A DNA stretch of 64,000 bases from Dictyostelium discoideum (GCA_000004695.1 CM000155.2:576001-640000); one strand, 5' to 3'. Positions 3,629-57,716 are shown, counted from the first letter of the stretch. The notes: generated from the letters alone by a model not told the origin. Numbers and translations: made by a program.

Positions 3629-3699
3629 TTTTTAATTTTTTTTTAATTTTTAATTTATATTCTATTTTTAATTATATTATTTCTTATTTAGAAAATTAG

Positions 3700-3740
<41 letters not shown>

Positions 3741-4024
3741 GAAATAAAAAAAATAAAAATAAAAATAAAAATAAAAACCAATTAAAATTTCATCGTTTTC
3801 GGTTTTTTAAGATTTTGCTTTTTATTTTTATTTTTATTTTTTTTTTTTTTTTTATTTTTTTTTGAGAAATTTTTAATATTTACACTCTGATTTCATTTTT
3901 TTTTTTTTAAACCCCACTTTTAGCAATTTTTTTTGAAAAAAAAAAAAAACTATCATTTATTGTTTTTCTTTTTATTATTACATCGGTGGAGAGTATATTT
4001 TTAAAAACCAATATACAAAATCTG

Positions 4025-6109
4025 ATGACAAATTTAAAAAATAAAAAAATTGAAAATTCAAGTATAGAGGTTGATAACAATAATAATAATAATAATAATA
4101 ACAATAATAAAAATCAAAATAATAAAAAAAGAACATTAGAAATATCCTATACAAATAAATTTCAATTTTTAGATAGTTCAGATAGTGGTGGTGAAAGTGA
4201 TACAGATAAAGAAATGAATAGAGTTTCATTAAAAAAAAAAAAGAAATCATCACCAATTTCAAATAAATTAAGTCAAGATTTAAAGAAAAAAGAACAAAAA
4301 TTTAAAACTACAAATGATACAGTAACTGATTATAACACCAACAATGGTGGTGGTGGTGTAGGTAGTAATGGTGAAATTCAAAAACCAACATTTTCAATTA
4401 ATCGTAATAATTGTACAATTAAAGATATTCAAGATTATATAGTTTGGTTAATGTTAAGATTTAAAGTACCAACACCAAATTGGATTTTCACAGCAATGTC
4501 ACCATTAATTAAAAAAGTTGTAGTAGTATCAATTCAAGGCATTAGTTCGTTGATGCACGATAAATTATCATTGTTATCTGGTAAAGATCATTTATTCTCT
4601 CAAGTATTTGAAGCTAAAAACAAAGTTGAATTACAATTTCCAAATTATAATCATATCTTTGAATCACTATTAAATGTCAAAACTTGTAAAGTTCAAAAAA
4701 TTGATACTTGTGAAAAAATGAGAAAAGAAATTGAACCAATATCATTCTATCTATTAGATGATCAACAATTAGTTGAAAATGGTTATTTTACTATAAAAGA
4801 TTTAAAAGATGGTTGGGTATATAGTAATCAAGTTAAACAAATTTTAAATTTAATAAAACCATCTAATGATGATGATAATAATAATAATAATCAAGAAGAA
4901 GATAATGGAGCATCATCACCAACAACAACCACAGTTAATAGTGATGATGATAATAATGATAATAATAATAATTTAATAAATAAATTAAATTTAAAAGTTA
5001 AAGAAATGTTAGCAATTGATTGTGAAATGTGTAGAACAGAGGGTGGTCAATTAGAATTAACAAGAATTAGTATTGTAAATGAACAAAAAAAAGTAGTATT
5101 GAATGAATTAGTATTACCAGAGAAACCAATTATAGATTATTTAACGCAGTACAGTGGTATTACAGCAGATACATTAAAGAATGTTACAAATCGTTTATCG
5201 GATATTCATGCGAAACTTGAGAAATTGGTTGGAGTTGATACTGTATTGATTGGACATTCCTTGGAGAACGATTTGAAAGCAATGAAATTCATACATCGTA
5301 AAATCATTGACACATCTATACTCTATCCAACAGGATCCAGTGGTAAATTCTCATTGAAATATTTAACAAAGAAATATTTAAATCGTATCATTCAATCTAC
5401 TAAACATGGTAAACTTGGTCATGACTCAATTGAGGATGCACGTGCTGCAATGGATTTAGCTCAATTGAAAATTCAAAAAGGTAAAAGTTTTGGAACTAGA
5501 TTGGCATCAATGGAGAATTTATTCGATAAAATTAATAAACATGAAAAGAAATCAAGTTTCATCGATAGATTAGAAGATATTAAAACTTTTACTTCTCAAG
5601 TGGTATCTTGCTTCAATTGTGAAAATGATAATGAAGTAATTGAAAAAATAATTAAACAATCCTCAAATTCCTCTTCTTCAGATTTAATCTTTTCACAATT
5701 AACTTCATTATCTGATCATTTTAAAAGTTTACTACCAAAACAATTTTCAATTACAAATCCTGAAGAAAATAAATTAACTACTACTACAACCACAACTACT
5801 ACTACTATTACTAATCCAATTGAAACTATTATTGATTCACCATTATTAACTGAAAAAGAAATTAAAGAAATTCATTCACTTGATAGTATTGAAATTAATA
5901 CAACAGTTAAACAAATAGTTCGTCAAATGGAATTACAAATAAAGAATGTTTATGATAAATTACAAGAGAATTCAATGTTATTATTAATTTTAGGTCCTGG
6001 TCCATTAAATGATATTATTCGTTTCCAAGGTGATGGTAATAAACAAAAAGATTATTATTTATCAGTTGATACTGCAAAAGAAGGTGTGGCATTTTTAGCA
6101 TTAAAATAA
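4025..6109 (+). CDS. RNA exonuclease 1 (REX1/REXO1-like) DEDDh 3'-5' exonuclease with Asn-rich N-terminal region
   Basis: The ORF track entry 3986..6109 begins at a GTG. The first in-frame ATG is 4025. Exonuclease motifs are LAIDCEMCRT (Exo I, DxE), LIGHSLENDLKAM (Exo II) and HDSIEDARAAMDL (Exo III, H-x4-D). Confidence 0.7.
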   Translation: MTNLKNKKIENSSIEVDNNNNNNNNNNNKNQNNKKRTLEISYTNKFQFLDSSDSGGESDTDKEMNRVSLKKKKKSSPISNKLSQDLKKKEQKFKTTNDTVTDYNTNNGGGGVGSNGEIQKPTFSINRNNCTIKDIQDYIVWLMLRFKVPTPNWIFTAMSPLIKKVVVVSIQGISSLMHDKLSLLSGKDHLFSQVFEAKNKVELQFPNYNHIFESLLNVKTCKVQKIDTCEKMRKEIEPISFYLLDDQQLVENGYFTIKDLKDGWVYSNQVKQILNLIKPSNDDDNNNNNQEEDNGASSPTTTTVNSDDDNNDNNNNLINKLNLKVKEMLAIDCEMCRTEGGQLELTRISIVNEQKKVVLNELVLPEKPIIDYLTQYSGITADTLKNVTNRLSDIHAKLEKLVGVDTVLIGHSLENDLKAMKFIHRKIIDTSILYPTGSSGKFSLKYLTKKYLNRIIQSTKHGKLGHDSIEDARAAMDLAQLKIQKGKSFGTRLASMENLFDKINKHEKKSSFIDRLEDIKTFTSQVVSCFNCENDNEVIEKIIKQSSNSSSSDLIFSQLTSLSDHFKSLLPKQFSITNPEENKLTTTTTTTTTTITNPIETIIDSPLLTEKEIKEIHSLDSIEINTTVKQIVRQMELQIKNVYDKLQENSMLLLILGPGPLNDIIRFQGDGNKQKDYYLSVDTAKEGVAFLALK

Positions 6110-6918: not shown

Positions 6919-7520
6919 AAATAATTTAGTGATAAGAGTTTTATTTTAATTTTTTTAATAAAAAAAATAAAATAAAGAAATTTTAATATTTGATCATTCC
7001 ATTGTTTTTTTTTTTTTATTTTTTTTAATTTTTTAAAAAAAAATAAATAAAACAATAATAATAAAAATTAATAATTGTTTTAAAAAATTTAATTAAATTT
7101 TAGCATTTGTAAAAATTAAAATACAAATAATTATAAGGTGTGTTGTATGTGTGTGAATTAAAATTGTATGTTTTATTATTTAAAAATTAATTTTTTTTGA
7201 TTTATTAGTGTGTGGTTAGTTTTTTTTTTTTTTTTTTTTTTTTTGTAGTCTGTCTTTTTTTTGATTTTTTTTTTTTTTTAAATGTGACTTTTATAAAAAT
7301 AGTGACTATTAATTTATAATACAACCCTTTTAAGGTATTACTTTTTTATAATTATTATTATCTATTTATCTTATATAAAAAAAAAAAAAAAATTTAGAAA
7401 TTATTTTATTTTTTTTTAATTGTTAACTGTAATACTGAACTGTAATATGCATATTAACTTCAATAATTTAATCATTATCGTTTTGATATTTTTTTTTAAA
7501 AAAAAAAATTAAATAATAAG

Positions 7521-7584
<64 letters not shown>
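7521..7584. repeat. poly(A) tract, ~64 nt
   Basis: direct read. Confidence 0.9.
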
Positions 7585-7591
<7 letters not shown>

Positions 7592-7709
7592 CAAAAATAT
7601 TATATTTATAAAAACCCTAACGGTCAATCTATTTATTTATATTTTTATTTGTTTATTTATTTATATATTTATTTATATATTTATCTATTTATTTATTATT
7701 TATTTATTA

Positions 7710-8099
7710 TTAATTTTGTTTACTTAAAAATTGAGATGATAAATTAAGAGTACAATCTTGGTAATCTAAATTTACTAAACATTGAACAATACAACTAGCA
7801 TCAGTACCACATTCTTCACGACAAACTTGTAAAATGAGTGAGCAACTGGTTTTTAAATTTGGATTTGAATTTAATTGATTTGATTTTTCTTCATGGAAAT
7901 TATTATTTATTGTACAATGTGCATAATCTAAATTTACTAAGCAAGTTGTAAAACAATTTGAATTATTGCCACACATTCTTTCGCATGCATCGAAAATTTG
8001 TTGACAACTTGTTGAAGAAACAATACCATTATTAATATTAATAATATTAAAAATTAATAAAGTAATAAGTAATTTAGATAAAATTTTAACAATATTCAT
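7710..8099 (-). CDS. small secreted cysteine-rich protein with an internally duplicated 6-Cys module
   Basis: 129-aa ORF with a hydrophobic N-terminal signal-like segment. Two ~33-aa repeats share the spacing C-x5-C-x3-C-x5-C-x3-C-x7-C (SCQQIFDACERMCGNNSNCFTTCLVNLDYAHCT / SCSLILQVCREECGTDASCIVQCLVNLDYQDCT). Confidence 0.55.
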   Translation of the reverse strand: MNIVKILSKLLITLLIFNIININNGIVSSTSCQQIFDACERMCGNNSNCFTTCLVNLDYAHCTINNNFHEEKSNQLNSNPNLKTSCSLILQVCREECGTDASCIVQCLVNLDYQDCTLNLSSQFLSKQN

Positions 8100-23997: not shown

Positions 23998-25077
23998 TTA
24001 AATGCTTTGTTGTTTGTGGTTTATAATGAGTGTGTATAATTTTGTTGTTTGGTTTTTTGTTAGTGACCAGTTTTTGTTTCCATTGCAATTTTTATATATA
24101 AAATATTTTAATTTGTCGTGGTTTATGAAGTTGATTGTGTGCTGACAATTGAAAAACAAATGACCATAGGGATCATTATTCATTTCATTGTTGCAAATGG
24201 GGCAAACTTTGTTGTGTAGATGATTAATCGGAAGACATCTAGCATGGAATCTTTGCATTGTATCACGCCCTTTTGGATCTTTTAATTTTTGAATTTTGAC
24301 AAATAGTTGGTCGTATGTGTATTTCCATAATAGTTGTATTGATTGTTGGTGCGAAGTAAGAAGTAGATCTGAATATTTCTTGCCAATATAGTCTTTTGAT
24401 TTACATTGGTGATTGTTGAGTATTGTCGAGTAGATTTCTTTGAGTGTTGGTGGTAGTGGAATATTATTTGTGTTTAATGTTTGAGAGGTTTGATTTTTTA
24501 TTAATATTGGTTGTAGGATTTGAACTTTATCTTTTAGATGTCCAATTTGAGTTGCATAGTTTTCCCATTCTCTTTTGATTTTTATAAGGTATGGAGAAGA
24601 GATTGATTTGTTGATGATTTGATCCATCCAACTTATCATGTATATTGAATTATTTGCCGATTTATGCATTTGTAAAAATCTGTTGTATATCCAAATCTTT
24701 TGAGCAACTTGTCGTAATTGTATATTCCACATACCCCAACCACCTTCTTTTAATGGTTTTAATGATCTATCATAACACATCAAAGGTATTTTTGCACGTG
24801 AATGGATGGTTGATGTGTTATTTTCAATGGAATTGGCATTGAGAGTTGGTGATTCAGAATTTGTGGGAGAATTCATAAACCATGAGATTAATTTATTAAT
24901 TTGAATTTCTTCATCTTTTGTAAATTCTTCAAGGTATGATAAATATGTTATTGGTGATAGTGAGTAGGTGTTTATGATGGTTGTTTTTGTTTTTAATGTT
25001 GTGCCACTAGTTTTCCATAGTACTAATGATTTATTCAATGTTTTCATTGTTTCTGGTAATTTCCATATGTAAACCAT
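23998..25077 (-). CDS. C-terminal part of ORF2 (zinc-knuckle domain), in a different frame from the RT part (frameshifted copy)
   Basis: 359-aa ORF overlaps the end of ORF 25031..27367 by 47 nt. It contains HARCLPINHLHNKVCPICNNEMNNDPYGHLFFNCQHT, which is conserved in the second element in this window. Confidence 0.6.
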   Translation of the reverse strand: MVYIWKLPETMKTLNKSLVLWKTSGTTLKTKTTIINTYSLSPITYLSYLEEFTKDEEIQINKLISWFMNSPTNSESPTLNANSIENNTSTIHSRAKIPLMCYDRSLKPLKEGGWGMWNIQLRQVAQKIWIYNRFLQMHKSANNSIYMISWMDQIINKSISSPYLIKIKREWENYATQIGHLKDKVQILQPILIKNQTSQTLNTNNIPLPPTLKEIYSTILNNHQCKSKDYIGKKYSDLLLTSHQQSIQLLWKYTYDQLFVKIQKLKDPKGRDTMQRFHARCLPINHLHNKVCPICNNEMNNDPYGHLFFNCQHTINFINHDKLKYFIYKNCNGNKNWSLTKNQTTKLYTLIINHKQQSI

Positions 25078-27367
25078 TATGATTAAAGAAATAGCTAAGG
25101 ACTCTTTCTGATTGATCTTTTTTGGTTATTGGTATTCTTTTTGATTGTGGAGTATTGTTTATTATGTGTTTATCAGTGATTTTGTGGGGGTTGATTTCTA
25201 TTATTGCACTTTTGTCAAAATTTAATGATGATGATGTTGAAGCGCAGAAATTATCGAAATGTTTGATTGATTGTTGTTGTTGTTCGTAGTTGATGTTGTA
25301 TGTTGTAGAGTCGTCTGCAAATTGGGTAAATTTGATTTTAATTTGTGGATTGGGTGAAATTGGTAAACCAATTATTGAATTGTCTGCATTTATTGTTCTT
25401 GCTAATATTTCAATTACAATTACAAATAAAGTGGCTTGTTTTACACCTTGTTTTACACCTCTTTTAATATCGAATTTTCTGGTTGTTTTACCATTAATTG
25501 AAATTTTTGCTTGTGAGTCAGATAATAGCTTGTGGATTAAATTTATTAATTTTATTGGTATACCAATATGAATTAATGTTCTTTTAATACTATCGTGAGA
25601 GATAGAATCAAATGCTTTAAAGAAGTCAAATAGTGTGATGATACCAGGGAGGTTTTTAGATTTGAGGTAGTTGATTAAATCATTGATGTTGATGATGTTG
25701 TCTATGATGAATCTGTGGGGTACGAAACCAGTTTGGTTGTTGTTGATGATGAAAGGAAGTATTCTCAGAAGACGTGCATTGATTACTTTTGAGAGGATCT
25801 TGTAATCAGTGTTTAGAAGTGTAATGGGACGACGATTTGATATGAGTAACGGGTTGCCTTTCTTGTATATTGTGTGTATAAGACCTTCGGTGAATTCTGT
25901 TGTGATGTGGTGAGGATTTTCTAGTATATCGTTGAATAATGTAGTGAGAATTGGTTTAACTTGGTTTAAATGATTAATGTAGAATGCATTTGTAACGCCA
26001 TCTGGACCGGGTGATTTGTTGGGGTTACAGGTTTTAATTGCAGCTTCAACTTCATCTTGTATAAATGGTGAGTCTAAACCATTCCAATATTCATTTTTTA
26101 TGATGGGCCATGTGTTTAGCATGAGCTGGTGAGTAATTGGACAACATATTTGTAAGCTATATAGATTTGTGTAGAATTCAACAAACGCATTTTCAATTTG
26201 GTCGGGGTCGGATGTAATGATGTTACCATATTGGATTGATTCAATTTTTGCATCTTTTGATCTTTTGTTTAGTATTGCTGATAGATACTTGCTAGGTATT
26301 TCTCCATTTATATGTTTTTTTAATATGTTTGTGTGGTTTTGATGTAGTTTGTTTTTGTTACATATAATATTGTATTCAGCGATGCATTGTTCTTCAAGAT
26401 GTTTGAATTTTGCTGCTTTTTCTAATAGTATTTGTTTTGCACGTTGAGTTTGTTTGTCTTTGTTATATTGATAGTTTTTTAGAGTTTTTATAATTTTTGA
26501 TTTTACTTTTGACCAGTTTGTAAATTGATTGATTGATGTGTTATTGTGATTAGTTATTAAATGATTGATAATATTGATTGCTTCATGGTCATTTGCAGTA
26601 CCAGGTGATAATATCCATCTTTTCTTATGTTTATTTATTTGAAAAGGTGAAGAAATTGTTGTTGATATTGGATTATGATCTGATAATGAAGATGGAATTT
26701 GGTGGACTTGTGTATATATATTTTCAGGGTCTATTCTATTGTATTGAGTATATATTCTATCTAATCTGTTGCCATGTGTATGAGTTGGAGTGTTTTTAAA
26801 TTCACCTTGATCAATTAGATGGTGTTGGTATGTGTAGGATTGGATAATATCATCTAATAGTGAATTGTCGTTGTGGATACAGTTGAAATCTCCTGCGATA
26901 ATAGATACATGTTGGGATTGGTTTGGTATTGGGTTTGTTGAGTGGTTGTGGAGAAGTGTTTGTAGTGAAGTTGCATATGAATTCTTTTTGATGGTATTAT
27001 TTGATGCTGGTGCGTAAATTCCAAGAATACCAATTGGTAATTGATTTGGAAATATAACGTCTGCTAAAATAGCTCTACCATCAATTGTTGATATGTGTTT
27101 GAGTTTGAGTGTGTTTGGGTTATGGTTAATGATGATTACACCATTTCCTCGTTTGGTGACAGAGATGATGTGATCGGGAAAATCATGTTTAAGTTGTAAT
27201 GGTGATGAATTGAGTTCAGTGAGTATTGAGATTGTTGGACGAGGTGGAAGTTTTGATATAAGTAGTTGTAGTGTGTCAACAGCTTTTTGGTAGGAATTGT
27301 GTTGATTGTTTGGGTTTTCAGTGAATCCTCTACAATTCCATGTTATAAAGTTGATTTTTGAGCTCAT
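25031..27367 (-). CDS. retrotransposon ORF2, AP-endonuclease + reverse transcriptase domains (778 aa)
   Basis: N-terminal EEP-nuclease-like MSSKINFITWNCRGF...IIAGDFNC. RT motifs PGIITLFDFFKAFDSISHD, KRGVKQG, QFADDSTTY. Confidence 0.8.
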   Translation of the reverse strand: MSSKINFITWNCRGFTENPNNQHNSYQKAVDTLQLLISKLPPRPTISILTELNSSPLQLKHDFPDHIISVTKRGNGVIIINHNPNTLKLKHISTIDGRAILADVIFPNQLPIGILGIYAPASNNTIKKNSYATSLQTLLHNHSTNPIPNQSQHVSIIAGDFNCIHNDNSLLDDIIQSYTYQHHLIDQGEFKNTPTHTHGNRLDRIYTQYNRIDPENIYTQVHQIPSSLSDHNPISTTISSPFQINKHKKRWILSPGTANDHEAINIINHLITNHNNTSINQFTNWSKVKSKIIKTLKNYQYNKDKQTQRAKQILLEKAAKFKHLEEQCIAEYNIICNKNKLHQNHTNILKKHINGEIPSKYLSAILNKRSKDAKIESIQYGNIITSDPDQIENAFVEFYTNLYSLQICCPITHQLMLNTWPIIKNEYWNGLDSPFIQDEVEAAIKTCNPNKSPGPDGVTNAFYINHLNQVKPILTTLFNDILENPHHITTEFTEGLIHTIYKKGNPLLISNRRPITLLNTDYKILSKVINARLLRILPFIINNNQTGFVPHRFIIDNIININDLINYLKSKNLPGIITLFDFFKAFDSISHDSIKRTLIHIGIPIKLINLIHKLLSDSQAKISINGKTTRKFDIKRGVKQGVKQATLFVIVIEILARTINADNSIIGLPISPNPQIKIKFTQFADDSTTYNINYEQQQQSIKHFDNFCASTSSSLNFDKSAIIEINPHKITDKHIINNTPQSKRIPITKKDQSERVLSYFFNHNGLHMEITRNNENIE

Positions 27368-28572
27368 ACCTTACTAGGTTTGGCAGCACCAGTATTGACT
27401 GGTTGTGTAGTCAGGGCATTGCTGCTTCTTCTTGTATTTATTGTATTTGGAGTTGGTGCACTTGGTTTGTTTGGTTGAGATTGTAGAGGTTTTTGTGGTA
27501 CAATTGTTGGATCGGTTGGATTGCTCATTGATAATGAGTTTTTCCCGTTATTATTATTTGAAGAATCACTTTTGTGTGAAATTTCATTATTGTTTTGGGA
27601 TTGATTGTTAATATCAAGTGATTCATTTAGTATAGCTTTTGAACCACTATTTTGAAGTGAGTTATTATTGCGATTGGAATTTGCAATTTCGTTGATTGGT
27701 GGGGTGTTAATGTTGTTTTTTGGTGGTTGATTGTTTTTGTTCATGTTTGGGTTTGTGATGGCATTTTTTATAGTTGTTGCCATATCTGCATTTTTTGCAT
27801 GTTGAATTTTGTGTTTAGTGACACTACGTGTTGCAGCTTTGATATATCTTGTGATACCAGATGGTTGTTCGATCTTTTGATCAACAATGTTGTGTGTGTG
27901 ATCAATTAGATGATATGTTATAATGTAGCTTTTAAACGCAACAGCATATGAGTATGTGACAGTAAATGATTCAATTGATGTACAACTGGTGAATTTAGTG
28001 AGGTTGTTTGTAATTGCATCGTTTGCATGTTTGGGTGAGTACGTTTTAATGAATGTTTTAATGATTGCATAATCATTTGATGATATATCGAATCTATAGT
28101 TGAGTTTGTCGATATTTAGTGCAAGTTGGTTTTGAAGGTTGATTATTGAAGTTAATTTATCAACGTTGCAATTTACGAAGGCAGTTGCACCAATTATTTT
28201 GAATGCTGATGGCGACAGTATATCTTCGAAGAGTTTGTGAATGTTTTTGTGAATTTGTTGAATTCTTGTGTCATCTTTTGAGGTTAATTCTTCACGGATG
28301 TGTGGTTGATTAAAGTAACACTTAATGTTGATGGTGTTATTGTTTTTTTCTAAGAAAGAGAGTGGTCTTGTGATTGATGGAGGTGCAATGATATCTAATT
28401 GATTATCAAGTCCTTTGTTTAGTGAGAGTTGGTTTGTTGGGGTTTGTTTTTTAGGTGTGTCGATTTTTGCACTTTTATTTTTTGTTGTTGAGGTTGTGGA
28501 GGTATTATTTGTATTGGTCGTGTTGTTATCTGTATGATTTAACTGTAATTCAGTTGAGTGATCATCAGCCAT
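27364..28572 (-). CDS. retrotransposon ORF1 (402 aa)
   Basis: ORF track entry. Ser/Thr/Asn-rich and basic. Its stop overlaps the ORF2 ATG as ATGA. Confidence 0.7.
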   Translation of the reverse strand: MADDHSTELQLNHTDNNTTNTNNTSTTSTTKNKSAKIDTPKKQTPTNQLSLNKGLDNQLDIIAPPSITRPLSFLEKNNNTINIKCYFNQPHIREELTSKDDTRIQQIHKNIHKLFEDILSPSAFKIIGATAFVNCNVDKLTSIINLQNQLALNIDKLNYRFDISSNDYAIIKTFIKTYSPKHANDAITNNLTKFTSCTSIESFTVTYSYAVAFKSYIITYHLIDHTHNIVDQKIEQPSGITRYIKAATRSVTKHKIQHAKNADMATTIKNAITNPNMNKNNQPPKNNINTPPINEIANSNRNNNSLQNSGSKAILNESLDINNQSQNNNEISHKSDSSNNNNGKNSLSMSNPTDPTIVPQKPLQSQPNKPSAPTPNTINTRRSSNALTTQPVNTGAAKPSKV

Positions 28573-28763
28573 TGTTGAAAAGTATATAGGACGATAGCCC
28601 TTGCTTTAATGAGCAAAAAAAGGGTAAAATTAAGAGGAATGAATGTGGCGGTGAAGATATAACAGTGATTTATTTATTATATGTATAAATTCTCGTTTAT
28701 TTCTTTGTTTTTTCGGTTTTTTTTTCGTTTTTTTCGTAAAAAATATATTTCCCAAAAACAATG

Positions 28764-28843
28764 TGGAAGATGAGGGACTCGAACCCACGACCCCGGAGGA
28801 TAGAGCCTAAATCTATTGTCTTAACCATCTCGACCAATCTTCC
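28764..28843 (-). tRNA. tRNA-Leu (anticodon UAG), class II with long variable arm
   Basis: The reverse complement folds by hand. Acceptor GGAAGAT/ATCTTCC, D arm GTC-GAGATGGTTAA-GAC, anticodon stem ATAGA/TCTAT with loop TTTAGGC, variable arm CCTCCGGGGTC, T arm GTGGG-TTCGAGT-CCCTC (one T-T mismatch). The layout matches human tRNA-Leu-TAG. A T5 terminator lies downstream on the minus strand. Confidence 0.75.
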
Positions 28844-30323: not shown

Positions 30324-33300
30324 TCATATGAATTGATCAAAAGATATAATATTTGGGAGAGATGATTCTGGAATACAATAGTAATTAGCTGTTGTTTTTC
30401 TTAGCTTGATCGTTGAGGTGAGAAGGATCTTAGGATCTTTGAAATTATTATGGTCTTTTGCTGATAAGTTTTTCAGATCTTTTGCTTTTTTGATGTATTC
30501 TAGAGTGGCCAATTTGTGCCATTTCTTTAGAAGGGAGCTGTATGATAATGATTCATTTGTTAAAGGATCTTCACTGTATATTTGATTGCAAATCCAAATC
30601 CAAATGTTGTGGAGGATAAGGGCCATTAGGTTTCTATATGCGAATGATCTGGTTAGATCATAGTCTATTGCTTTATAGTTCCATTCAAAGTATTCTTTGT
30701 GGAATCTGTGGTTGGCGTAATCTGCATTCACTTTTTGATCTTTTTTGGCTGTCGGTGATAATTTTGGAGTTATTCTATTAATGAAATTGTTATTTTGCCT
30801 AATTCTTGTATGGTGCCAGTTTTTACCTTTGCCTGTGGTAATATAGATGAAATTTTTGAGTTTATTTATTTTTATGAATTGTTTTGTTTTCTTGCATGAG
30901 AAGAACAGGTGACCGTATGGGTCTTTGCTCATATCTTCTTTGCAGAGTGGGCATTGTTTGTTGTGAAGATAGTTTATTGGAAGGCATCTGGCATGGAATC
31001 TAAACATTGTGTCTCTTGTTTTAGGGTCTTTTATCTTCAGTATGTTGTTGAAGAGTTGATTATAGCTGTAGCCTCTTAAGTTTAGAGATGATTGGAATTC
31101 CGTTTTAGGGATGGTTGGATTTTGGTCTTGAATTGTGGTATACCATTCTGCCAGTGAAAGTGGTTGTCCATTTTCGTTTTTTATGGATGTGAGATTATTG
31201 TTGAAGATTGCTTTTTTTATTCTTATTTTGTTCCATTCGTCTAAGTTTTCTTTTAGGTATCTGGATGTGAATTTGTTTTTTTGGATCTGATATTCCCAGC
31301 TTTTGTGATGAGATGAGTTTGTTTGTTTGGTTTCTAGTGCTAGGATGAACTGGTTTATGATCCAAAGTTTCTGCGCCAGTTGTCTCAATTCTATATTCCA
31401 AATGTTCCAGCCCCCTACTTTTAGTGGGTATCTTGCTCTTTTGGTTCTCATTAAATTAATAACTTGAAATCCACTAGCATTTTTGTTGTTTGGTGCCGAT
31501 AAAAACCATTCGACTAATTTATTGATTTGGTTTAATTCCTCTTCCTTAAAGTTCTCTACATATGAATAGTAGGTTAATTTAGAGAGTGCGAATGCTTTGA
31601 GGATGTTGGTTTTGGTTTTTATTGTTGAGTCAGTGGTTTTCCATAGTACTAAGGATGATCTTATTGTGTTTAATATTTCTGGCATTTTTCTTGTTATCCC
31701 TTTACCTGTGAAGAAGTATCCCAAGTATCTTTCTGGATTTGTAGATATTGGAATTCTTTGGTTGGTATTGTCTGGGTTGCCTATAAGAATTGATGAAGAT
31801 TTGTCGATGTTTAGTTTTGAGGAAGTGGCTTTGCAAAATGAATTGAAGTGTTGTAGTACTAATTCAAGTTGTTGAGAGTCTGGGACCATTGAAGCCGAGT
31901 CGTCTGCAAAGCTTTGGAATTTCTCTCTGTGGTTGCTGTTGTTTAGAGGAAGGCCAGTAATTCGATCATCTTGTAAAATTTTTCTAGCTAAAGCCTCTAT
32001 TACAAGGACGAACAGTGTGGGTGATAGTGGATCTCCTTGTTTAACTCCTCTTTTGATCTCAAAGGGTATAGTAATTTCAATTCTTGCTTCAGATTTGGTG
32101 AGTAGATTCATTATCAGGTTGATTATATTGGTTGGAATGTTGATGTGTTGTAGTGATCTAAGTATTGAACCGTGTGAGATCGAGTCAAAAGCTTTTTCGA
32201 AATCATATAGTGTAATTATTCCGTTAATTCTTTTATCATTACAATAGTTGATTAATTCGTTCATTGATATGATATTATCTAGAATGAATCTGCCTGGTAC
32301 GAAACCTTTTTGATTGTGGTTGATCACTTTCGTTAGTATTGGGATTATTCTATTGTTTATTAGCTTTGAGTGGATTTTATATATCCAGTTAGCCAGTGTA
32401 ATTGGTCTTCTGTTTTTGATTAGTTCGGGGTCTCCCTTTTTAGGTATCGTGATAATGAGGCCTTCTTTGTAATTTTTGCTAATTAGATGAGGATTTCTTA
32501 GAGTGTCGTTGAATGCTGAGGCCAGTATTGGAGCTAGTTTTTCTTTGTGTGTTATGTAGAATAAGTTTGGAATTCCATCTGGGCCTGGAGATTTGTGTGG
32601 GTTCAATTGTTTTATTACTTCTAGGATCTCTTGTGATGTGAATTCATTTTCAAGGTTGTCCCATGTTGAGTCCCTGGTCACTGTCCAATTTTCCAACATT
32701 TCATAATGAGATGGTGGGTCATCTTCTTTGTAGTCATAAAGATTTGAGTAATATTTTACGTATTCTTCTTCGATCAATTCCTGTTTGTTGATTGTTCTAC
32801 CTTGTGCATCTTTTACTGCGTTGATGGTGAAATCATTGTGTCTTTTCTTGATTCTCGCGGAGATGTACTTGAGTGAGGTTTCTTCGCAATAGTTGTTCAA
32901 TTCTTGTTTAAGTTGTTCTTCTCTTTTTTTAGATTCATTTATTGCTGAAAGGGTTGCGAAGGCTTGGTCTTTAAATTCTGTCTCTAGTAGGGAGATTAGA
33001 TTTTTGATGTTTGCCTTATTGTTGTAGTCATTTTGTTTTTGAAATTCTGTGTATAGTTGTTTTATTTTGTTTAGTAAGCTGTTGAGTTGAGAGAAGGAAA
33101 TAGAGTTATGGTTGGATGACAGCTCCCTTGAATAATCGTTAAGTAGGAAGTCTATTTTCTTAAGCATTATGCTTGAGAGGATTGAGGATTTTTTTAATCT
33201 CCATCTGCGCTTGTTCATCTGTATGTTGGGTAGAGTGAAGGTGGTTGATAGGAAGTTGTGATCTGATAGAGGTATGTCATTAATTTTTGGGGGGATTAGG

Positions 33301-34016
33301 TTCCTTAAGTATAATTGGCTGTAGTTGATTATGCTATTGTTAAGGTATATTCTGTCTAGTCTCCTTTCCAAGATTCTTGTGAGGTTATTGTTTGTGTTGT
33401 GTATCGTTCTTGAGAAGGTGGGTCTTTTATTTAGTTGGTCCATATCCATTAGGTTATTTGAAATTCTGATGGCTTCGATTACTGTGGCCATCTCATCTGG
33501 GGATTGTGTTGTCAAGTTGCCTTGGTCATCATTTGATGTGTGATTGTCATTGAAGTCTAAACAATTGAAGTCGCCTGCTATGATGTCGATGTTTTTTTTA
33601 GGGTTAGACGTTAGGTTGTGGTATTGGTTGTTGAAGTGTTTGTTTAGTGTTGAAGCTAGTATTTTTCTTTTATCAGGTTGGGCCGGGGCGTATATGGCCA
33701 AGATTCTCGTTGTGGTATCTTTTATTAGAATGTCTGATATTATTAGTCTACCTTCTATTATGAATATTGGTGAGAGTTTTATGTTTTGGTTGTTGTGGTT
33801 TAGTATTCCTATTCCGTTGCCTCTTTTGGTTGCGCTAATGATGGAGCCAGGGAATAGCTGGTGTGCTTGTGTTGCGTCGGCGTTGAGTTCATTGACTATG
33901 GTTAGTGCCAATGAGTTTGGGGGGGATTGGGATTTGATAAAGTCTGTTTTGTTTTTGAAGGAGGTGTCAGTGCCCCAACCTCTGACATTCCATTGGTTGA
34001 TTTTGATTACTACCAT
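30324..34016 (-). CDS. retrotransposon ORF2: AP-endonuclease + reverse transcriptase + zinc-knuckle, intact 1230 aa
   Basis: MVVIKINQWNVRGWG...IIAGDFNC (EEP nuclease). RT motifs NGIITLYDFEKAFDSISH, KRGVKQGDPLSPTLFVL, FADDSA. C-terminal CPLC...DPYGHLFFSC. Confidence 0.85.
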   Translation of the reverse strand: MVVIKINQWNVRGWGTDTSFKNKTDFIKSQSPPNSLALTIVNELNADATQAHQLFPGSIISATKRGNGIGILNHNNQNIKLSPIFIIEGRLIISDILIKDTTTRILAIYAPAQPDKRKILASTLNKHFNNQYHNLTSNPKKNIDIIAGDFNCLDFNDNHTSNDDQGNLTTQSPDEMATVIEAIRISNNLMDMDQLNKRPTFSRTIHNTNNNLTRILERRLDRIYLNNSIINYSQLYLRNLIPPKINDIPLSDHNFLSTTFTLPNIQMNKRRWRLKKSSILSSIMLKKIDFLLNDYSRELSSNHNSISFSQLNSLLNKIKQLYTEFQKQNDYNNKANIKNLISLLETEFKDQAFATLSAINESKKREEQLKQELNNYCEETSLKYISARIKKRHNDFTINAVKDAQGRTINKQELIEEEYVKYYSNLYDYKEDDPPSHYEMLENWTVTRDSTWDNLENEFTSQEILEVIKQLNPHKSPGPDGIPNLFYITHKEKLAPILASAFNDTLRNPHLISKNYKEGLIITIPKKGDPELIKNRRPITLANWIYKIHSKLINNRIIPILTKVINHNQKGFVPGRFILDNIISMNELINYCNDKRINGIITLYDFEKAFDSISHGSILRSLQHINIPTNIINLIMNLLTKSEARIEITIPFEIKRGVKQGDPLSPTLFVLVIEALARKILQDDRITGLPLNNSNHREKFQSFADDSASMVPDSQQLELVLQHFNSFCKATSSKLNIDKSSSILIGNPDNTNQRIPISTNPERYLGYFFTGKGITRKMPEILNTIRSSLVLWKTTDSTIKTKTNILKAFALSKLTYYSYVENFKEEELNQINKLVEWFLSAPNNKNASGFQVINLMRTKRARYPLKVGGWNIWNIELRQLAQKLWIINQFILALETKQTNSSHHKSWEYQIQKNKFTSRYLKENLDEWNKIRIKKAIFNNNLTSIKNENGQPLSLAEWYTTIQDQNPTIPKTEFQSSLNLRGYSYNQLFNNILKIKDPKTRDTMFRFHARCLPINYLHNKQCPLCKEDMSKDPYGHLFFSCKKTKQFIKINKLKNFIYITTGKGKNWHHTRIRQNNNFINRITPKLSPTAKKDQKVNADYANHRFHKEYFEWNYKAIDYDLTRSFAYRNLMALILHNIWIWICNQIYSEDPLTNESLSYSSLLKKWHKLATLEYIKKAKDLKNLSAKDHNNFKDPKILLTSTIKLRKTTANYYCIPESSLPNIISFDQFI

Positions 34017-34981
34017 TATGAGATGATATCGATCTCCTCTTGGGAGTCGTTTAGCTGCGGTTTGGATGGTGAAGGGTAGATACTCTCTATGAAGCTCTCA
34101 ATGATTCCTTTCCTTTCTTTTTTGACAGGTGTCTTAGGGGTGGATGGGATGTAAGGGTTGCTTCTGTTTATTGTTGGTGAGAGTTGGGTGACTTCATTGT
34201 TTGAGTGGATTTCCTCGTTCTTGCGTTTATGTGATGGAGGGATGTTTAGTGTCTTCTCTCTGTTTTCCGAGGATGAATGGATGTTAGTGCTTGTTTTGTT
34301 GGCATTGTCTTTTTGGATGGCGTTGGATGTTGTGGTAGTGGTTGTGGTGGGTTTGACAGATTGAGATTCTGCTGGGTTTTTGGGGGGAAGAGGTTGAGAT
34401 GACTTTTTTGCTTGGGCTTTTTTCTCTTGTGTTGATTGTTTATCAGACTGATTGTTTGCTGGGTTGTTTGTTTGGGTGTTAGGAGGATCTGTCATCTCAT
34501 CTTCTAATGGTTCCTCCGTGTTGTTTGTCTCTACTTTCTTGTTTTTCTTTTGTGAGGAGTAGGTTTTGGTGGCCGTTCTGATGGTAAAGTTTGCGATTTC
34601 TGTAATGTGTTGGCCAGATTTCATTTGATCGCCTATTTTGCATTCTATTAGACCGAATACTATGAGGTGGTCGGTGGAGTATATAGTATTGTATATTGCA
34701 TAGGGTATTTCTTCTGCAAAGGCAGTTTTGATGAGGGCGTCCACTATTCCTGCCTTTTCTCTGGGAATTCTTACTCTTCCTGTGAGGACGTGGAAGTCTC
34801 TACTGGAGGTGATGAAGGTTCCCAATTTGCTTCTATCTCTAATGATATTTAGGAGAGATTGTTCGTTTTTAATCATCAGGTGGATCATTTTTCTAGTTCC
34901 TTTGCCTATGTATATCTTGTCGATTGGGATATCGTAGTTTGAGAGTGTTTTTCTCATTTCTTCTAACCCCTTGAGATCCAT
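34016..34981 (-). CDS. retrotransposon ORF1 (321 aa)
   Basis: ORF track entry. Its stop codon shares one nucleotide with the ORF2 ATG (TAATG). Confidence 0.65.
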   Translation of the reverse strand: MDLKGLEEMRKTLSNYDIPIDKIYIGKGTRKMIHLMIKNEQSLLNIIRDRSKLGTFITSSRDFHVLTGRVRIPREKAGIVDALIKTAFAEEIPYAIYNTIYSTDHLIVFGLIECKIGDQMKSGQHITEIANFTIRTATKTYSSQKKNKKVETNNTEEPLEDEMTDPPNTQTNNPANNQSDKQSTQEKKAQAKKSSQPLPPKNPAESQSVKPTTTTTTTSNAIQKDNANKTSTNIHSSSENREKTLNIPPSHKRKNEEIHSNNEVTQLSPTINRSNPYIPSTPKTPVKKERKGIIESFIESIYPSPSKPQLNDSQEEIDIIS

Positions 34982-48701: not shown

Positions 48702-53217
<4,516 letters not shown>

Positions 53218-53461
53218 CTTTTTTCTGTTGCTTATATGTGATTTATGCTAGTTTTTTTATTTTTTTTTTTTTTGGAAAAAAAAAAAAAAAAAATTATTTC
53301 CTAATGAACTAAATTATATTTAAAATATATTTTTGATTAATACAATAAATGATGAAGGGATTTATTTTTTTTTTTTTTTTTTTGTGTGTGTTGGTGTGAA
53401 AATTTAAAAAAAAATAAAAAAAATAAAAAAATAGAGTTGATGGTTTTTTTTTTTTTGTTTT

Positions 53462-53497
<36 letters not shown>

Positions 53498-53525
53498 TTT
53501 AATTATTTTTATTATTATTTTATTA

Positions 53526-53603
<78 letters not shown>

Positions 53604-53683
53604 TTATTATTATTATTTTATTTTAAAAATTATTATTATTTATGTAACTCTTTATTTAACAATTAAAAAAAATTAAATAAATT

Positions 53684-53893
53684 AAATGTTGTAGGGAATT
53701 TTCAATAAAATTTCACTACAGTAGCGTAGTGAATTTTATTATTTAATTTCACTACAGTAGCGTAGTGAAAAAAAAAAATCACTGACCTTAAATGTTGTAG
53801 GGAATTTTCAATAAAATTTCACTACAGTAGCGTAGTGAATTTTATTATTTAATTTCACTACAGTAGCGTAGTGAAAAAAAAAAATCACTGACC
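53684..53893 (+). repeat. left terminal repeat of the transposon (two tandem ~105-bp units, each with a CACTAC-AGTAGC-GTAGTG hairpin motif)
   Basis: direct read. Confidence 0.6.
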
Positions 53894-54069
53894 CTAAATT
53901 TTTTTTTTTTTCAAAAAACAAATAAAGTTTATTAAATTATTATCTTTTATTTGATTATTAGTTCTATTTAAGTTTTTTTATTTTTTTTTTTTTTAATTTA
54001 ATTTTTTTTTTTTTTATTTTATTTTTTTTTTTTTTTTTGCGCCAAAACTTTTTTTTTTTTTCCCCAACA

Positions 54070-54104
<35 letters not shown>

Positions 54105-54323
54105 TTTCATTTTCCCAAAATGAAACAAGATAAAATAAATGAAATTATAAATTATTTAAAATTTATTGAAGATAATAATTTTGAAAATACTAAACATAAA
54201 AATTATAAATTTTTACATGATGAGTAAATATTTTTCCTTACAATAACACAATCATTTTTTAAATTCTGACCAATAAAAAACAGAAACAGAAAAGAAAAAT
54301 TATTTAGAATTGAAAAAAAAGTC

Positions 54324-55216
54324 ATGAATTGTGGCGGAGATAGAAATATATCAAAAGAAGTGTGTTTAGAAGTAATTAATGATTATAGAATGGTATCACT
54401 CTGGGAAGAAATGCATAAAGGTCATATAGGAAGAGATGCAACCTATGGGAACTACAAGACTAAATATTATAATATGGGATTGTATTCTTTTGTATCTGAT
54501 GCAGTAGATACGTGTGACATTTGCCAACGAAATAGAATAAAAGGTTTGGTATCAATCATTTTTATATGATGTTTTGTAACTTTTATATTAAAACTCTTTT
54601 AATAATTTAAATAAATTAATAGGTATAACAAAGGATTTTGCTCCAATTGTAGATACCGAGGAATACTCAAGATTGGTTTATGATTTAACATCAATTAAAG
54701 GTGAACATAAAGAAAAAGTTACATACGATGATGATAATGAAAAGATACTAACTAAACTAGATGATCTTATCCAATATGACTCTGTACAACCGTACGACAC
54801 CGATGTTGTTTACATTATTCTATGCATAGATTCTTTTACAAAATTTGCTACTGGAAGGTATTTATTTTTTATTTATTAATTTATTAGTTTTCTTTTTTTA
54901 TTTTAATTATCATTTATTTTTTAGATGTTTGACAACAAAGAGAACAGTTCCCATATACAATTTTTTGGCTCTCACGTACTTTGGCAAACCTGTGAAAGTA
55001 TGGCACTGCGATAATGGACGTGAATTTAAAAACAAAGTCCAAAAAGAATTCCTAAAACTTTTTCCAGGCTCCAAGTCAGCACATGGAGCTCCTCGTACAC
55101 CAACAACTCAAGGTATGGTAGAAAGATTGAATCGAACTATCAAGGAGAGGATCTCAAAATTAAAACAACAAGAGTATGATATTGTGAACAATATAAATTA
55201 TCGATATGTTTATTAA
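54324..55216 (+). CDS. transposon integrase/transposase gene, at least 3 exons (about 54324..54554, 54622..54858, 54924..55170)
   Basis: ORF-track pieces 54324..54569, 54673..54879 and 54845..55216 are linked by GT...AG introns (e.g. NRIKG|GTTTGG ... TTAATAG|GTATAAC; ATTTGCTACTGGAAG|GTATTT ... TTTTAG|ATGTTTG). The integrase-core motif KVWHCDNGREFKNK...GSKSAHGAPRTPTTQGMVERLNRTIKE is present. Exon edges are approximate. Confidence 0.55.
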
Positions 55217-55630
55217 TTAATCATTTATAAATAAATTTTAGTTTTCTTGATGGTACTTCTAGGTCTCTTTCTGAACTATTAAAACAAGCTTTGTATGATT
55301 ACAATAATACAAAAACAAGAACAATTAAAATGACACCATCTCAAGCTGTTGGTATTGTTCCTTTGTTTATTAATGTTCAATCAGAACAAGACTCTCAATC
55401 AATTGGTGTTTCAGATGTTTCAAAAGAAGAAAGAACAGCTATTATTCTTGAAAATCTCACAAGTTACCAAAATCAATGGAATTCAAAACCACCAAAGGGA
55501 TTGAAAGTTGGTGATACTGTACTCTTTCTAGAAATTAAAAAAAATAATGTAAGTAATTAAAACATAAAGATTAATAATATATGAAACAGTAATAATTAAC
55601 AAATTTTATATTTAATTCTAATAGAAAATA

Positions 55631-56617
55631 TTGATTTTGTGTAAAATTCATAAGGTAATACAGGAAGACACTAAACAACTTTATAAACTTGAATTTTTGG
55701 AAGATGGAATCAATAGCCTTCAAAAAAAAGGTTTATACTCTGGTTTTGTAGGAGGTAACAAGTTGGTTCTTTATAAACAATCAACAGTTGATATTTTTAG
55801 AACATCGCCAAACATACAAAAAGATATTGATTCTTTTACTTCTGGTCTTTATTTAAATAATGATGGGAAAGTTATTGAATTTCTGGTTCAGTTTATTAAA
55901 AATCTTGGTAAGGATTTATCCAATTTCAACTTGCATCAATTGGTAACACAAAATGATCCATTTAGGGTTTTGGAAGATGCTCTTAACAATCCATCAAATA
56001 TTCCACCTATCATTAACGATAATCCATTTCAACACAAACTCAATAATGAAATGGAACAAGAAGAAATACTCCCATTTTTAAATAATAATCCAACAGCGCC
56101 AAATTTAATGAATTGTTTGAGAAAGGATATGAATTTAAAAGAAATAGTACCACCAATACCTCAAGTGCAAATAATACCATCGTATACTATACCACAATCT
56201 GGTAGTGGTATAGTAACAACTGTTAAACGTCTCAGAGGCCGTCCTCATAAGATACCAATTGTTAATAAACCTCCTTTAAAATCACATTCTAAACCATCCA
56301 AATCACCTCTCAAATCACCATCCATTTCACCTTCCAATTCACCATTTAAATCACCATTTAAATCACCTTCCAAATCACCATTTAAATCACCTTCCAAATC
56401 ACCATCCATTTCACCTTCCAATTCACCATTTAAATCACCTTCCAATTCACCTTTTAAATCACCATTTAAATCACCTTCCAAATCACCATCAATAGGAAAA
56501 ATCGTTAATGTGATACCTTCAAAAAAAGTTGCAAAAACAAAGTTAACAAGGACACAAAAATTAGAACTTGATTTGGTTGCAATTAATAGAAGGGGGTATG
56601 GGGAAATTAGAAAATAA
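55631..56617 (+). CDS. second transposon ORF: Ser/Pro/Lys-rich protein with (SPSKSPFK)n repeats
   Basis: 328-aa ORF with a KSPxKSP repeat array at 56280..56500. It is probably joined to upstream exons 55291..55560. Confidence 0.4.
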   Translation: MILCKIHKVIQEDTKQLYKLEFLEDGINSLQKKGLYSGFVGGNKLVLYKQSTVDIFRTSPNIQKDIDSFTSGLYLNNDGKVIEFLVQFIKNLGKDLSNFNLHQLVTQNDPFRVLEDALNNPSNIPPIINDNPFQHKLNNEMEQEEILPFLNNNPTAPNLMNCLRKDMNLKEIVPPIPQVQIIPSYTIPQSGSGIVTTVKRLRGRPHKIPIVNKPPLKSHSKPSKSPLKSPSISPSNSPFKSPFKSPSKSPFKSPSKSPSISPSNSPFKSPSNSPFKSPFKSPSKSPSIGKIVNVIPSKKVAKTKLTRTQKLELDLVAINRRGYGEIRK

Positions 56618-57314
56618 AAACAAGTGGCCAAATCAAAAAAACAAAAAAAACACAAATCAACACAAAAAATTAAAAAAAAAAAAAAAAAATTAAAAATTAA
56701 AAAAAAAAAAAATTGAAAAAAATAAAAAAAAATTACATTTGTTAAAAAAAATAAAAAAAAATAAAAAAAAATAAAACTTAAAAAAAATTGAAAAAACAAA
56801 ATAAAAAAAAAAAATTGAAAAAACAAAATAAAAAAAAATTTCAAAAAAAAAGAATGATCGAAGAATTAATAGATTCGATAAAACTCTTAAAAAATTTAGC
56901 CATTGAATATGGCAATGAAGAATAGTTAGATTCAGAGGAAAATTTGACTAAATTCCTCGAAAAAGCAGCCAAAGTACTATATGTAAATAGGGGGGATGCT
57001 TTAATCGTTAAAAATTCAAATATGATGTTAGAAGCATTAGAATTAAAATCAAAACAATTTCCCCAACATTGTGTAAAAACTGTAATAAAAAACGAATAAT
57101 ATTTGGACTTTTTTGTATACAAAGGAAAATGCAAAAACATCAAATGCACCAGAGGTAACAAAGCTAGAAAAAATTCAATTGGGTGCAGTGTTTACAGTGA
57201 TATGGTAAATCAAGCAATTGAACAACTCAGGGAGTTAATAAAAATAAATCAATAAAAATAAATTAAAAAAAAAAAAATTGAAAAAAAAAGCAAATTAACC
57301 TTAATGATCAATGA

Positions 57315-57414
57315 NNNNNNNNNNNNNNNNNNNNNNNNNNNNNNNNNNNNNNNNNNNNNNNNNNNNNNNNNNNNNNNNNNNNNNNNNNNNNNNNNNNNNN
57401 NNNNNNNNNNNNNN
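57315..57414. other. assembly gap (100 N)
   Basis: N run. Confidence 0.95.
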
Positions 57415-57438
57415 AAAAATTTTAAAAAAAAAAATTTG

Positions 57439-57477
<39 letters not shown>

Positions 57478-57575
57478 AACAATAATTTTAATAAAAATAA
57501 ATAAAATAATAATTAAAACAAAAAATAAAATTTCAATTTAATAAACTTTTTTTGTTTTTTGAAAAAAAAAAAAAT

Positions 57576-57680
57576 TTAAGGTCAGGGATTTTTTTTTTTC
57601 CCTACGCTCCTGTAGGGAAATTAAATAATAAAATTCCCTCCGCTCCTGTAGGGAAATTTTTTGGAAAATTCCCTCCCCCC
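57576..57680 (-). repeat. right terminal inverted repeat (one unit)
   Basis: The reverse complement matches the left units at more than 85% by eye. Confidence 0.55.
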
Positions 57681-57684
57681 TTAA

Positions 57685-57716
<32 letters not shown>

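Follow-up and report, generated by a model that had tools for sequence, protein, structure and literature searches.

Tdd-4, a transposable element of Dictyostelium discoideum, was first described in 1999. Bao et al. (2010, PMC2836005) give TDD-4 a length of 3,839 bp, more than 10 copies, target-site duplications (TSDs) of 5 bp, TGTNR termini and a transposase with H2C2 and DDE domains and no GPY/F motif; they set its terminal inverted repeats (TIRs) at 260 bp, including an AT-rich extension (PMC2836005). In dictyBase 19 Tdd-4 elements stand against 2 Tdd-5 elements, and Tdd-4 is transcribed and 25-fold up-regulated in an rblA mutant (PMC3386910). A Tdd-4 entry is also found among the up-regulated genes of a study of a DNMT2 homologue (PMC12405889). 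Here we analysed a window of 64,000 nucleotides of the D. discoideum genome (GCA_000004695.1, CM000155.2:576001-640000; positions are counted from its first letter). We conclude with high confidence that positions 53687–57680 are a full-length copy of Tdd-4, of the 3.8-kb class, a cut-and-paste DNA transposon of the Ginger2/Tdd superfamily. The element is already known, and its recognition in an earlier sequence-only reading of this stretch was correct and not new.

Ginger1 elements of animals offer a close point of comparison. They share with the window element a cut-and-paste mode, a Gypsy-integrase-like transposase, TIRs, TGTNR termini and a coding sequence that is sometimes interrupted by introns (PMC2836005), but they use 4-bp GC-rich targets, carry both GPY/F and YPYY motifs, in many cases together with a protease domain, and their DDE core shows about 24% identity to that of TDD-4 (PMC2836005).

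The likeness to Tdd-4 itself extends much further. It covers the host species, a protein identity of 95–100%, a length of about 3.8 kb, TIRs of about 146 bp that begin with TGTTG, a 5-bp TSD, an HHCC finger and DDE core without GPY/F, five GT-AG introns with a possible sixth, C-terminal SPxx repeats and the presence of multiple copies. All the testable features of Tdd-4 and of the Ginger2/Tdd superfamily are found here, the TGTNR terminus at the left end and the sixth intron as a candidate, with the qualification that sequencing error has probably corrupted the right terminus; the sequence-only assignment to a Tdd-4-type element is upheld. The only differences are private to this copy, namely a 106-bp duplication, a right TIR with 14 neighbour-copying substitutions, one additional stop in a 3' frame and an assembly gap. 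The 1999 description by Wells is said to give 145-bp TIRs, TG...CA ends, 15 SPXX repeats and versions of 3.8 kb and 3.4 kb; against these 15 repeats, we count 16 SPxx units in the window copy.

The transposase gene carries much of this identification. Three-frame translation yields open reading frame (ORF) pieces that shift frame at short AT-rich intervals. The proposal that short AT-rich GT...AG intervals split the exons was borne out: once five of them are removed (60–79 nt and 7–22% GC, as against 30–38% GC in exons 2–6), a single uninterrupted ORF of 2,148 nt and 715 codons runs from 54120. Over its full length the hand-built product of 715 amino acids matches P0015, an NCBI protein (KAM9941581.1 plus three further accessions), exactly; P0015 was annotated independently at four loci of the D. 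discoideum assembly GCA_054883475.1. The parts of the gene are as follows.

54120–54223, plus strand: exon 1, with the ATG at 54120 (ORF restoration; spliced product identical to P0015).
54224–54283, plus strand: intron 1, GT-AG, 60 nt, phase 2 (same alignment column and phase in the Tdd-5-like paralogue L007).
54284–54543, plus strand: exon 2, with the HHCC zinc finger H79, H82, C112, C115 at 54414–54524 (Pfam Integrase_H2C2).
54544–54622, plus strand: intron 2, GT-AG, 79 nt, phase 1 (position and phase common to L007).
54623–54857, plus strand: exon 3, with catalytic D142 at 54682–54684 (alignment with Dictyostelium paralogues and retroelement integrases).
54858–54924, plus strand: intron 3, GT-AG, 67 nt, phase 2 (position and phase common to L007).
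54925–55173, plus strand: exon 4, with catalytic D229 (55010–55012) and E266 (55121–55123) (alignments including the integrase of Rous sarcoma virus, RSV).
55174–55241, plus strand: intron 4, GT-AG, 68 nt, phase 2 (intron of the L007 model one alignment column away).
55242–55548, plus strand: exon 5 (ORF restoration).
55549–55624, plus strand: intron 5, GT-AG, 76 nt, phase 0 (links the integrase part to the SPxx-repeat part).
55625–56617, plus strand: exon 6, with RGRP at 56234–56245, 16 SPxx units at 56303–56494 and, absent further splicing, the stop at 56615–56617.

Because the spliced six-exon product matches P0015 exactly, the ORF with (SPSKSPFK)n repeats that had been set apart as a second ORF is exon 6 of the transposase gene, joined in phase 0 through intron 5. 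Support for the introns is at the level of sequence and comes from ORF restoration, the identical NCBI model and, for introns 1–3, their positions in the paralogue. The positions and phases of these three are identical in the L007/P0005 family, whose proteins are about 43% identical to the window transposase, so that the introns are old features of these transposase genes.

The encoded protein bears the integrase signature claimed for it, including the motif GAPRTPTTQGMVERLNRTIKE. Pfam Integrase_H2C2 scores 32.1 bits against a cut-off of 25.5, and rve (26.6 bits) and rve_3 (22.7 bits) both match below their curated cut-offs; the sub-threshold rve score is attributed to an insertion of about 35 amino acids that follows D142 and separates the first D from the remaining core. 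Among the 60 PDB sequence matches listed of 112, all are retroviral integrases (RSV, prototype foamy virus (PFV) and human immunodeficiency virus type 1 (HIV-1); E about 1e-5), and the best of these alignments, to RSV integrase, spans the second D and the E, placing CDNG on TDNG and MVERLN on MVERAN. When the protein is aligned with Dictyostelium paralogues and four proteins of retroelement type, D142 and E266 show no variation and D229, C112 and C115 almost none, while H79 and H82 complete the zinc finger with the two cysteines. The best database matches are D. discoideum proteins of 95–97% identity; outside Dictyostelium only weak matches appear, to proteins with retroelement integrase or reverse-transcriptase (RT) domains. 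The C-terminal part holds an AT-hook-like RGRP motif and 16 consecutive SPxx units (residues 612–675), motifs of a kind that would suggest a DNA-binding role.

Since the integrase domains resemble those of the Gypsy type, the unit could be read as a fragment of a long terminal repeat (LTR) retrotransposon, of Skipper or DGLT-A type, that has kept only its integrase. The HHCC finger and the D,D(~35)E core are indeed common to Gypsy-type and retroviral integrases and the window transposase. However, the terminal repeats here are inverted, not direct, and LTRs are absent; Pfam gave only integrase domains in the transposase and none in a second frame behind it (the post-TAG frame described below), so that neither RT nor RNase H was found in either. 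The GPY motif is absent from the Tdd proteins, which read LCKIHKV or similar where three of the four aligned retroelement integrases (P0011, P0012, P0014) have GPY. The roughly 35 residues inserted behind the first D also set the window transposase apart, TSD and termini recur at every copy, and the cycle would be a DNA-only one of cutting and pasting. We consider an LTR fragment scarcely credible.

The ends of the element were defined by aligning left and right ends in the window and in the clean copies L001, L002 and L004, which belong to a set of further Tdd-4 loci (L001–L005, at least five in one strain, assembly GCA_054883475.1). The features at the ends are listed below.

53682–53686, no strand: left TSD, TTAAA, identical to the 5-mer after the right terminus.
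53687–53792, plus strand: additional copy of the left end in tandem, TIR bases 1–101 then TTAAA (compared with 53793–53898, one base differs).
53711–53733 and 53747–53769, plus strand: extra pair of TTTCACTACAGTAGCGTAGTGAA repeats inside the duplicated unit (motif search).
53793–53938, plus strand: left TIR, 146 bp, starting TGTTGTAGGG.
53817–53839 and 53853–53875 (span 53817–53875), plus strand: two 23-bp subterminal direct repeats, TTTCACTACAGTAGCGTAGTGAA (motif search).
57535–57680, minus strand: right TIR, with 14 substitutions relative to the clean copies, ending CCCTCCCCCC instead of CCCTACAACA.
57681–57685, no strand: right TSD, TTAAA, matching the 5-mer of the left flank.

The element runs exactly from 53687 to 57680 and has TTAAA at either side; this 5-mer occurs at 0.8% of window positions. 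A repeat search of the window recovered inverted arms at 53682–53796 and 57571–57685 that are 86% complementary and of complex sequence, and a longer inverted pairing of 53788–54034 with 57439–57685 is 81% complementary. The inverted repeat itself thus stands as the sequence-only reading had it; its length does not, the true TIR being about 146 bp rather than about 105 bp. Nor are the terminal repeats chance matches of low complexity: at up to three mismatches the 23-bp motif TTTCACTACAGTAGCGTAGTGAA has five matches in the window, all within the ends of the element and, at the right end, in inverted orientation, and none in 100 shuffles. The paired 23-bp repeats are candidate transposase-binding sites.

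From the integrase/transposase family we infer how such an element would move. A single multi-exon gene would be transcribed and spliced at five GT-AG introns and probably a sixth near the 3' end, yielding a transposase like retroviral integrases, whose N-terminus has an HHCC finger and whose DDE core (D142, D229, E266) has the RNase-H fold. The C-terminal tail, with RGRP and 16 SPxx units, would be suited to the minor groove of AT-rich DNA and may help binding. Within the 146-bp TIRs the transposase would probably bind the paired 23-bp subterminal repeats; the 3'-OH groups exposed at the terminal ...CA would be joined to the target with a 5-bp stagger, which in the window copy would yield the TTAAA duplication.

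Comparison with the other loci bears indirectly on mobility. L002 (3821 bp) and L004 (3831 bp) are clean and uninterrupted, with termini TGTTGTAGGG...CCCTACAACA, which L001 has too, and the two TIRs of the clean copies L001, L002 and L004 differ by 2–3 mismatches over about 146 bp (in L002 and L004 by two, A/C at position 18 and C/T at position 102). The TSDs are TCATC in L001, CATAT in L002, ATGAC in L004 and TTAAA in the window, and positions 54080–56672 of the window are 100% identical in DNA to L002 and L004; no second Tdd-4 copy or fragment lies elsewhere in the window. The transposase gene of the window copy is intact and identical to that of the other copies. Identical copies at different sites with different TSDs would be the signature of recent Tdd-4 activity. 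Because the coding DNA is 100% identical among such copies, the comparison points to an active multicopy transposon and not to a domesticated gene.

The sequence-only reading had left the choice between a potentially autonomous transposon and a domesticated integrase gene with retained inverted repeats; the former is favoured. An intact ORF and host-type introns might be expected of a host gene, but the identical protein is found at four or more other loci, in copies whose flanks and TSDs differ. AX4 gene models of the family also number about 12, with an internally deleted class among them, and published data treat the family as a transposon of 19 copies, de-repressed in the rblA mutant (PMC3386910). 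Domestication therefore has next to no probability in our judgement. Four of the AX4 models (P0003, P0031, P0033 and P0035) are without the segment GITKDF...GKPVK, RNRIK being joined directly to VWHCDNG, and consequently lack catalytic D142. We take this class to be the probable non-autonomous version of Tdd-4, presumably the 3.4-kb one.

The unit had also been called complete-looking. Comparison with other copies bears this out; what the call overlooked is a gap.

57315–57414, no strand: assembly gap of 100 N inside the element, which by alignment to L002 and L004 would hide only about 45 bp of real sequence.

The inner unit of the window copy measures 3888 bp including these 100 N, and subtracting them and adding about 45 bp fits the 3821–3831 bp of the clean copies. 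A 100-N gap within a multicopy repeat is a classic place for a mis-join, and the contigs on either side could in principle come from two Tdd-4 copies put together in silico. Such a chimera would have to place TTAAA on both flanks, at a chance of 0.8% per position, and arrive at a total length that fits a single element; we hold it to be very improbable.

Sequence quality beside the gap matters more for how this copy is read. Homopolymer length aside, all differences from L002 and L004 fall within 56891–57680, and their density climbs towards the gap from both sides (56891–57314 and 57415–57680). The 14 substitutions in the right TIR comprise nine A>C, three T>G and two A>T changes. Every one of them copies an adjacent base, where 4.7 of 14 would be the random mean; in 100,000 simulations the count never reached 14. 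Before the gap, the first 8 of 17 substitutions likewise copy a neighbouring base. At the right terminus the window reads CCCCC where clean copies have CAACA (the clean form of the right TIR being ...GAAAATTCCCTACAACA), and all four A-to-C changes there fit the neighbour-copying pattern. Base-call smear near a gap could create false stops and false TIR decay. The differences at the right end and in the 3' region are probably low-quality base calls at the contig ends beside the gap, in which case the terminal CA has probably not been lost and the extra TAA at 57097 is probably not real.

Alternatively, the changes might be taken at face value, as those of a genuinely decayed and immobile Tdd-4 copy in which the 14 right-TIR changes, the extra TAA and the left duplication are all real and which could at most supply transposase in trans. 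The sequence as given does contain the changes, which fall mostly into one mutational class, A:T to C:G transversions. Yet 2.6 kb of coding region match other copies at 100% identity, next to which a 10% divergence confined to 146 bp is hard to account for. The clustering on both sides of the N gap, denser towards it, also argues against decay, and so does the copying of adjacent bases in 14 of 14 cases, which is typical of base-calling smear and not of mutation. We regard genuine decay as unlikely. The oddities of this copy, a duplicated left end and a damaged-looking right end, most likely stem from a small local duplication and from poor sequence beside the assembly gap.

Several points weigh against reading the locus as a full-length Tdd-4. 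The database relatives are all named "hypothetical protein", and the name Tdd-4 rests on the fit to described features, not on alignment to a type sequence. As written, the right terminus is without the conserved ...CAACA and a surplus stop interrupts the 3' frame; if real, these changes would leave the window copy unable to move by itself. The element contains a 100-N gap, the continuity of its two halves being deduced from the TSD match and the length. Finally, the Pfam rve score lies below the curated cut-off, at 26.6 as against 32.6 bits.

The tandem duplication of the left repeat, which the sequence-only reading had noted, is present as two 106-bp units (53687–53792 and 53793–53898) that differ only at position 102 (T versus C). 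What is duplicated is precisely TTAAA plus TIR bases 1–101, and the 101-bp TIR parts are identical. The left end begins with TGTTG at both 53687 and 53793, and because TTAAA precedes both candidates the TSD cannot tell which is the true left terminus. The TIR continues as CTAAAT and the flank and terminus read TTAAAT, so that the duplication is bounded by TAAAT microhomology. It is absent from all five other Tdd-4 copies examined (L001–L005). The duplication would be either a real product of slippage or unequal exchange, or else an assembly artefact.

A simple nested insertion was rejected as its source, as the sequence to the right of the element is poly-A and not a continuation of the TIR. 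Two separate Tdd-4 insertions into the same TTAAA site, followed by a deletion at TAAAT microhomology that left 101 bp of the outer element, would account for the TTAAA before both candidate left termini and for an outer unit that stops exactly where the TIR reads CTAAAT. This scenario needs three events where one suffices, the 101-bp units are identical, and no other trace of a second element is seen in the window; we consider it improbable, more so than genuine decay of the copy. The left-end arrangement might still have been left behind by aberrant transposition or repair, and not by slippage or mis-assembly.

The 3' region of the element holds further candidate coding sequence, as follows.

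56596–56852, plus strand: candidate intron 6, 257 nt, A-rich, GT-AG or, equally in frame, AT-AA (56598–56854).
56853–56925, plus strand: candidate exon 7, (M/L)IEELIDSIKLLKNLAIEYGNEE then TAG (from an AX4 model).
56926–57255, plus strand: post-TAG frame, of coding-like composition, open directly after the TAG, with an extra TAA at 57097–57099 (TTA in other copies).

Exon 6 is followed by an A-rich spacer of 236 bp (10% GC) and then by the frame MIEELIDSIKLLKNLAIEYGNEE-TAG. The AX4 model XP_629717 (P0003) splices ...AINRRG to MIEELIDS..., which corresponds to the 257-nt candidate intron in the window, and a sixth intron near the 3' end of the gene is probable. Tdd-4 reportedly has six introns, the sixth being AT-AA and alternatively spliced, and the AT-AA reading at 56598–56854 would fit what we take to be the non-canonical intron 6 of Tdd-4.

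The frame that opens after the TAG has 108 codons in clean copies (5803–6129 in L002) and is present in every Tdd-4 copy examined. Its GC content of 29% is exon-like, as against 3–14% in non-coding parts; it has no Pfam match, and no homologue was detectable in the Tdd-5-like element L007. NCBI models make of it a gene of 110–114 amino acids by invoking an intron, and in L006, a copy of about 90% identity, a retrotransposon cuts the element off shortly behind the start of the frame. The frame might encode an undescribed second Tdd-4 product, through stop-codon readthrough, an unrecognised splice or separate initiation. That this frame and the left-end structure (TSD, TIR bases 1–101, TSD, full element) are real biology has, in our estimate, only a small chance.

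The comparison loci contain further elements. L007 carries, at 2665–about 5730, a member of a second family whose terminus TGTTGTAGGGAATTTTT is the same as that of Tdd-4 and whose protein is 43% identical; this family (P0004/P0005) is probably Tdd-5. It resembles the window element in its terminus (TGTTGTAGGGAATTTT...), in protein architecture and in the positions and phases of introns 1–3, and differs in sequence (43% protein and about 63–69% DNA identity in alignable parts) and in having no SPSKSPFK-type array and no post-TAG homologue. A 1.6-kb element at 382–1995 of L004 shares only the TIRs of the L007 family (80–85% identity) and looks like a non-autonomous derivative of it. At L003 (6500, 7089, 8075) the flanking 5-mers differ (GATAC versus CTATA) and two more solo right ends lie downstream, and at L005 no right end is found within 3 kb, which suggests that both are rearranged or nested Tdd-4 clusters in that strain.

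L001 carries three non-coding insertions of about 750 bp (3108–3868, 5299–6056 and about 7113–7867). They have inverted ends, CACAGCAAAG...CTTTGCTGTG, a TA duplication at the one insertion checked, many internal repeats of TTTAAAG type and a stretch that resembles a tRNA by eye. The element occurs once more in the C-terminal SPxx region of an AX4 copy (protein P0016, DDB_G0282355) and was not found in the window. It is probably thug-S; a gene with homology to tdd-4 as well as thugS has been mentioned (PMC3386910).

The window as a whole has 15–38% GC per kb and four runs of exactly 100 N, and its ORFs include ordinary eukaryotic genes, for a DEAD-box helicase, a DDHD protein and a KR-domain protein; it reads as nuclear DNA of D. 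discoideum from a gapped assembly. Two sets of non-LTR retrotransposon ORFs on the minus strand (23998–28572 and 30324–34981; RVT_1 in both, Exo_endo_phos in one) flank a tRNA-Leu(TAG) gene at 28763–28843 and look like the tRNA-gene-targeted TRE elements of Dictyostelium. Directly left of the Tdd-4 insertion site, 53440–53625 consists of a long run of T and then an (ATT)n microsatellite. This sequence is typical of the DNA between Dictyostelium genes and gave rise to many spurious low-complexity matches in the repeat search.

The description of the surroundings as a gene-poor desert holds to the right, where no credible ORF lies in 57.7–60.5 kb and the neighbouring gene extends beyond the window, but not to the left. 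There a very asparagine- and glutamine-rich ORF on the minus strand (48702–53217) crosses the N gap at 51337–51436, and because no more than 470 bp separate its start codon (53217) from the left end of the element, the Tdd-4 copy lies in the upstream region of this gene. A further ORF downstream of it encodes a GATA-type zinc finger and may belong to the same gene. Two queries, the N-terminus of this left neighbour and the GATA-finger ORF, gave no match in a large protein database, exact look-ups of two neighbouring ORFs likewise found no record, and hand-splicing of the ORFs at 47.1–48.3 kb gave no consistent gene model.

The significance of the locus is mostly one of annotation. Annotators should mask this stretch or label it a Tdd-4 transposable element rather than a host gene, merge the SPxx ORF into the transposase gene and regard bases near the gap (about 56.9–57.7 kb) as unreliable. 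Tdd-4 is of general interest as a DNA transposon that uses a retroviral-type integrase, known since 1999 and placed in the Ginger2/Tdd superfamily since 2010. To this our analysis makes only two modest additions: the positions of introns 1–3, held in common with a family of about 43% identity, and the conserved open frame after the terminal TAG.

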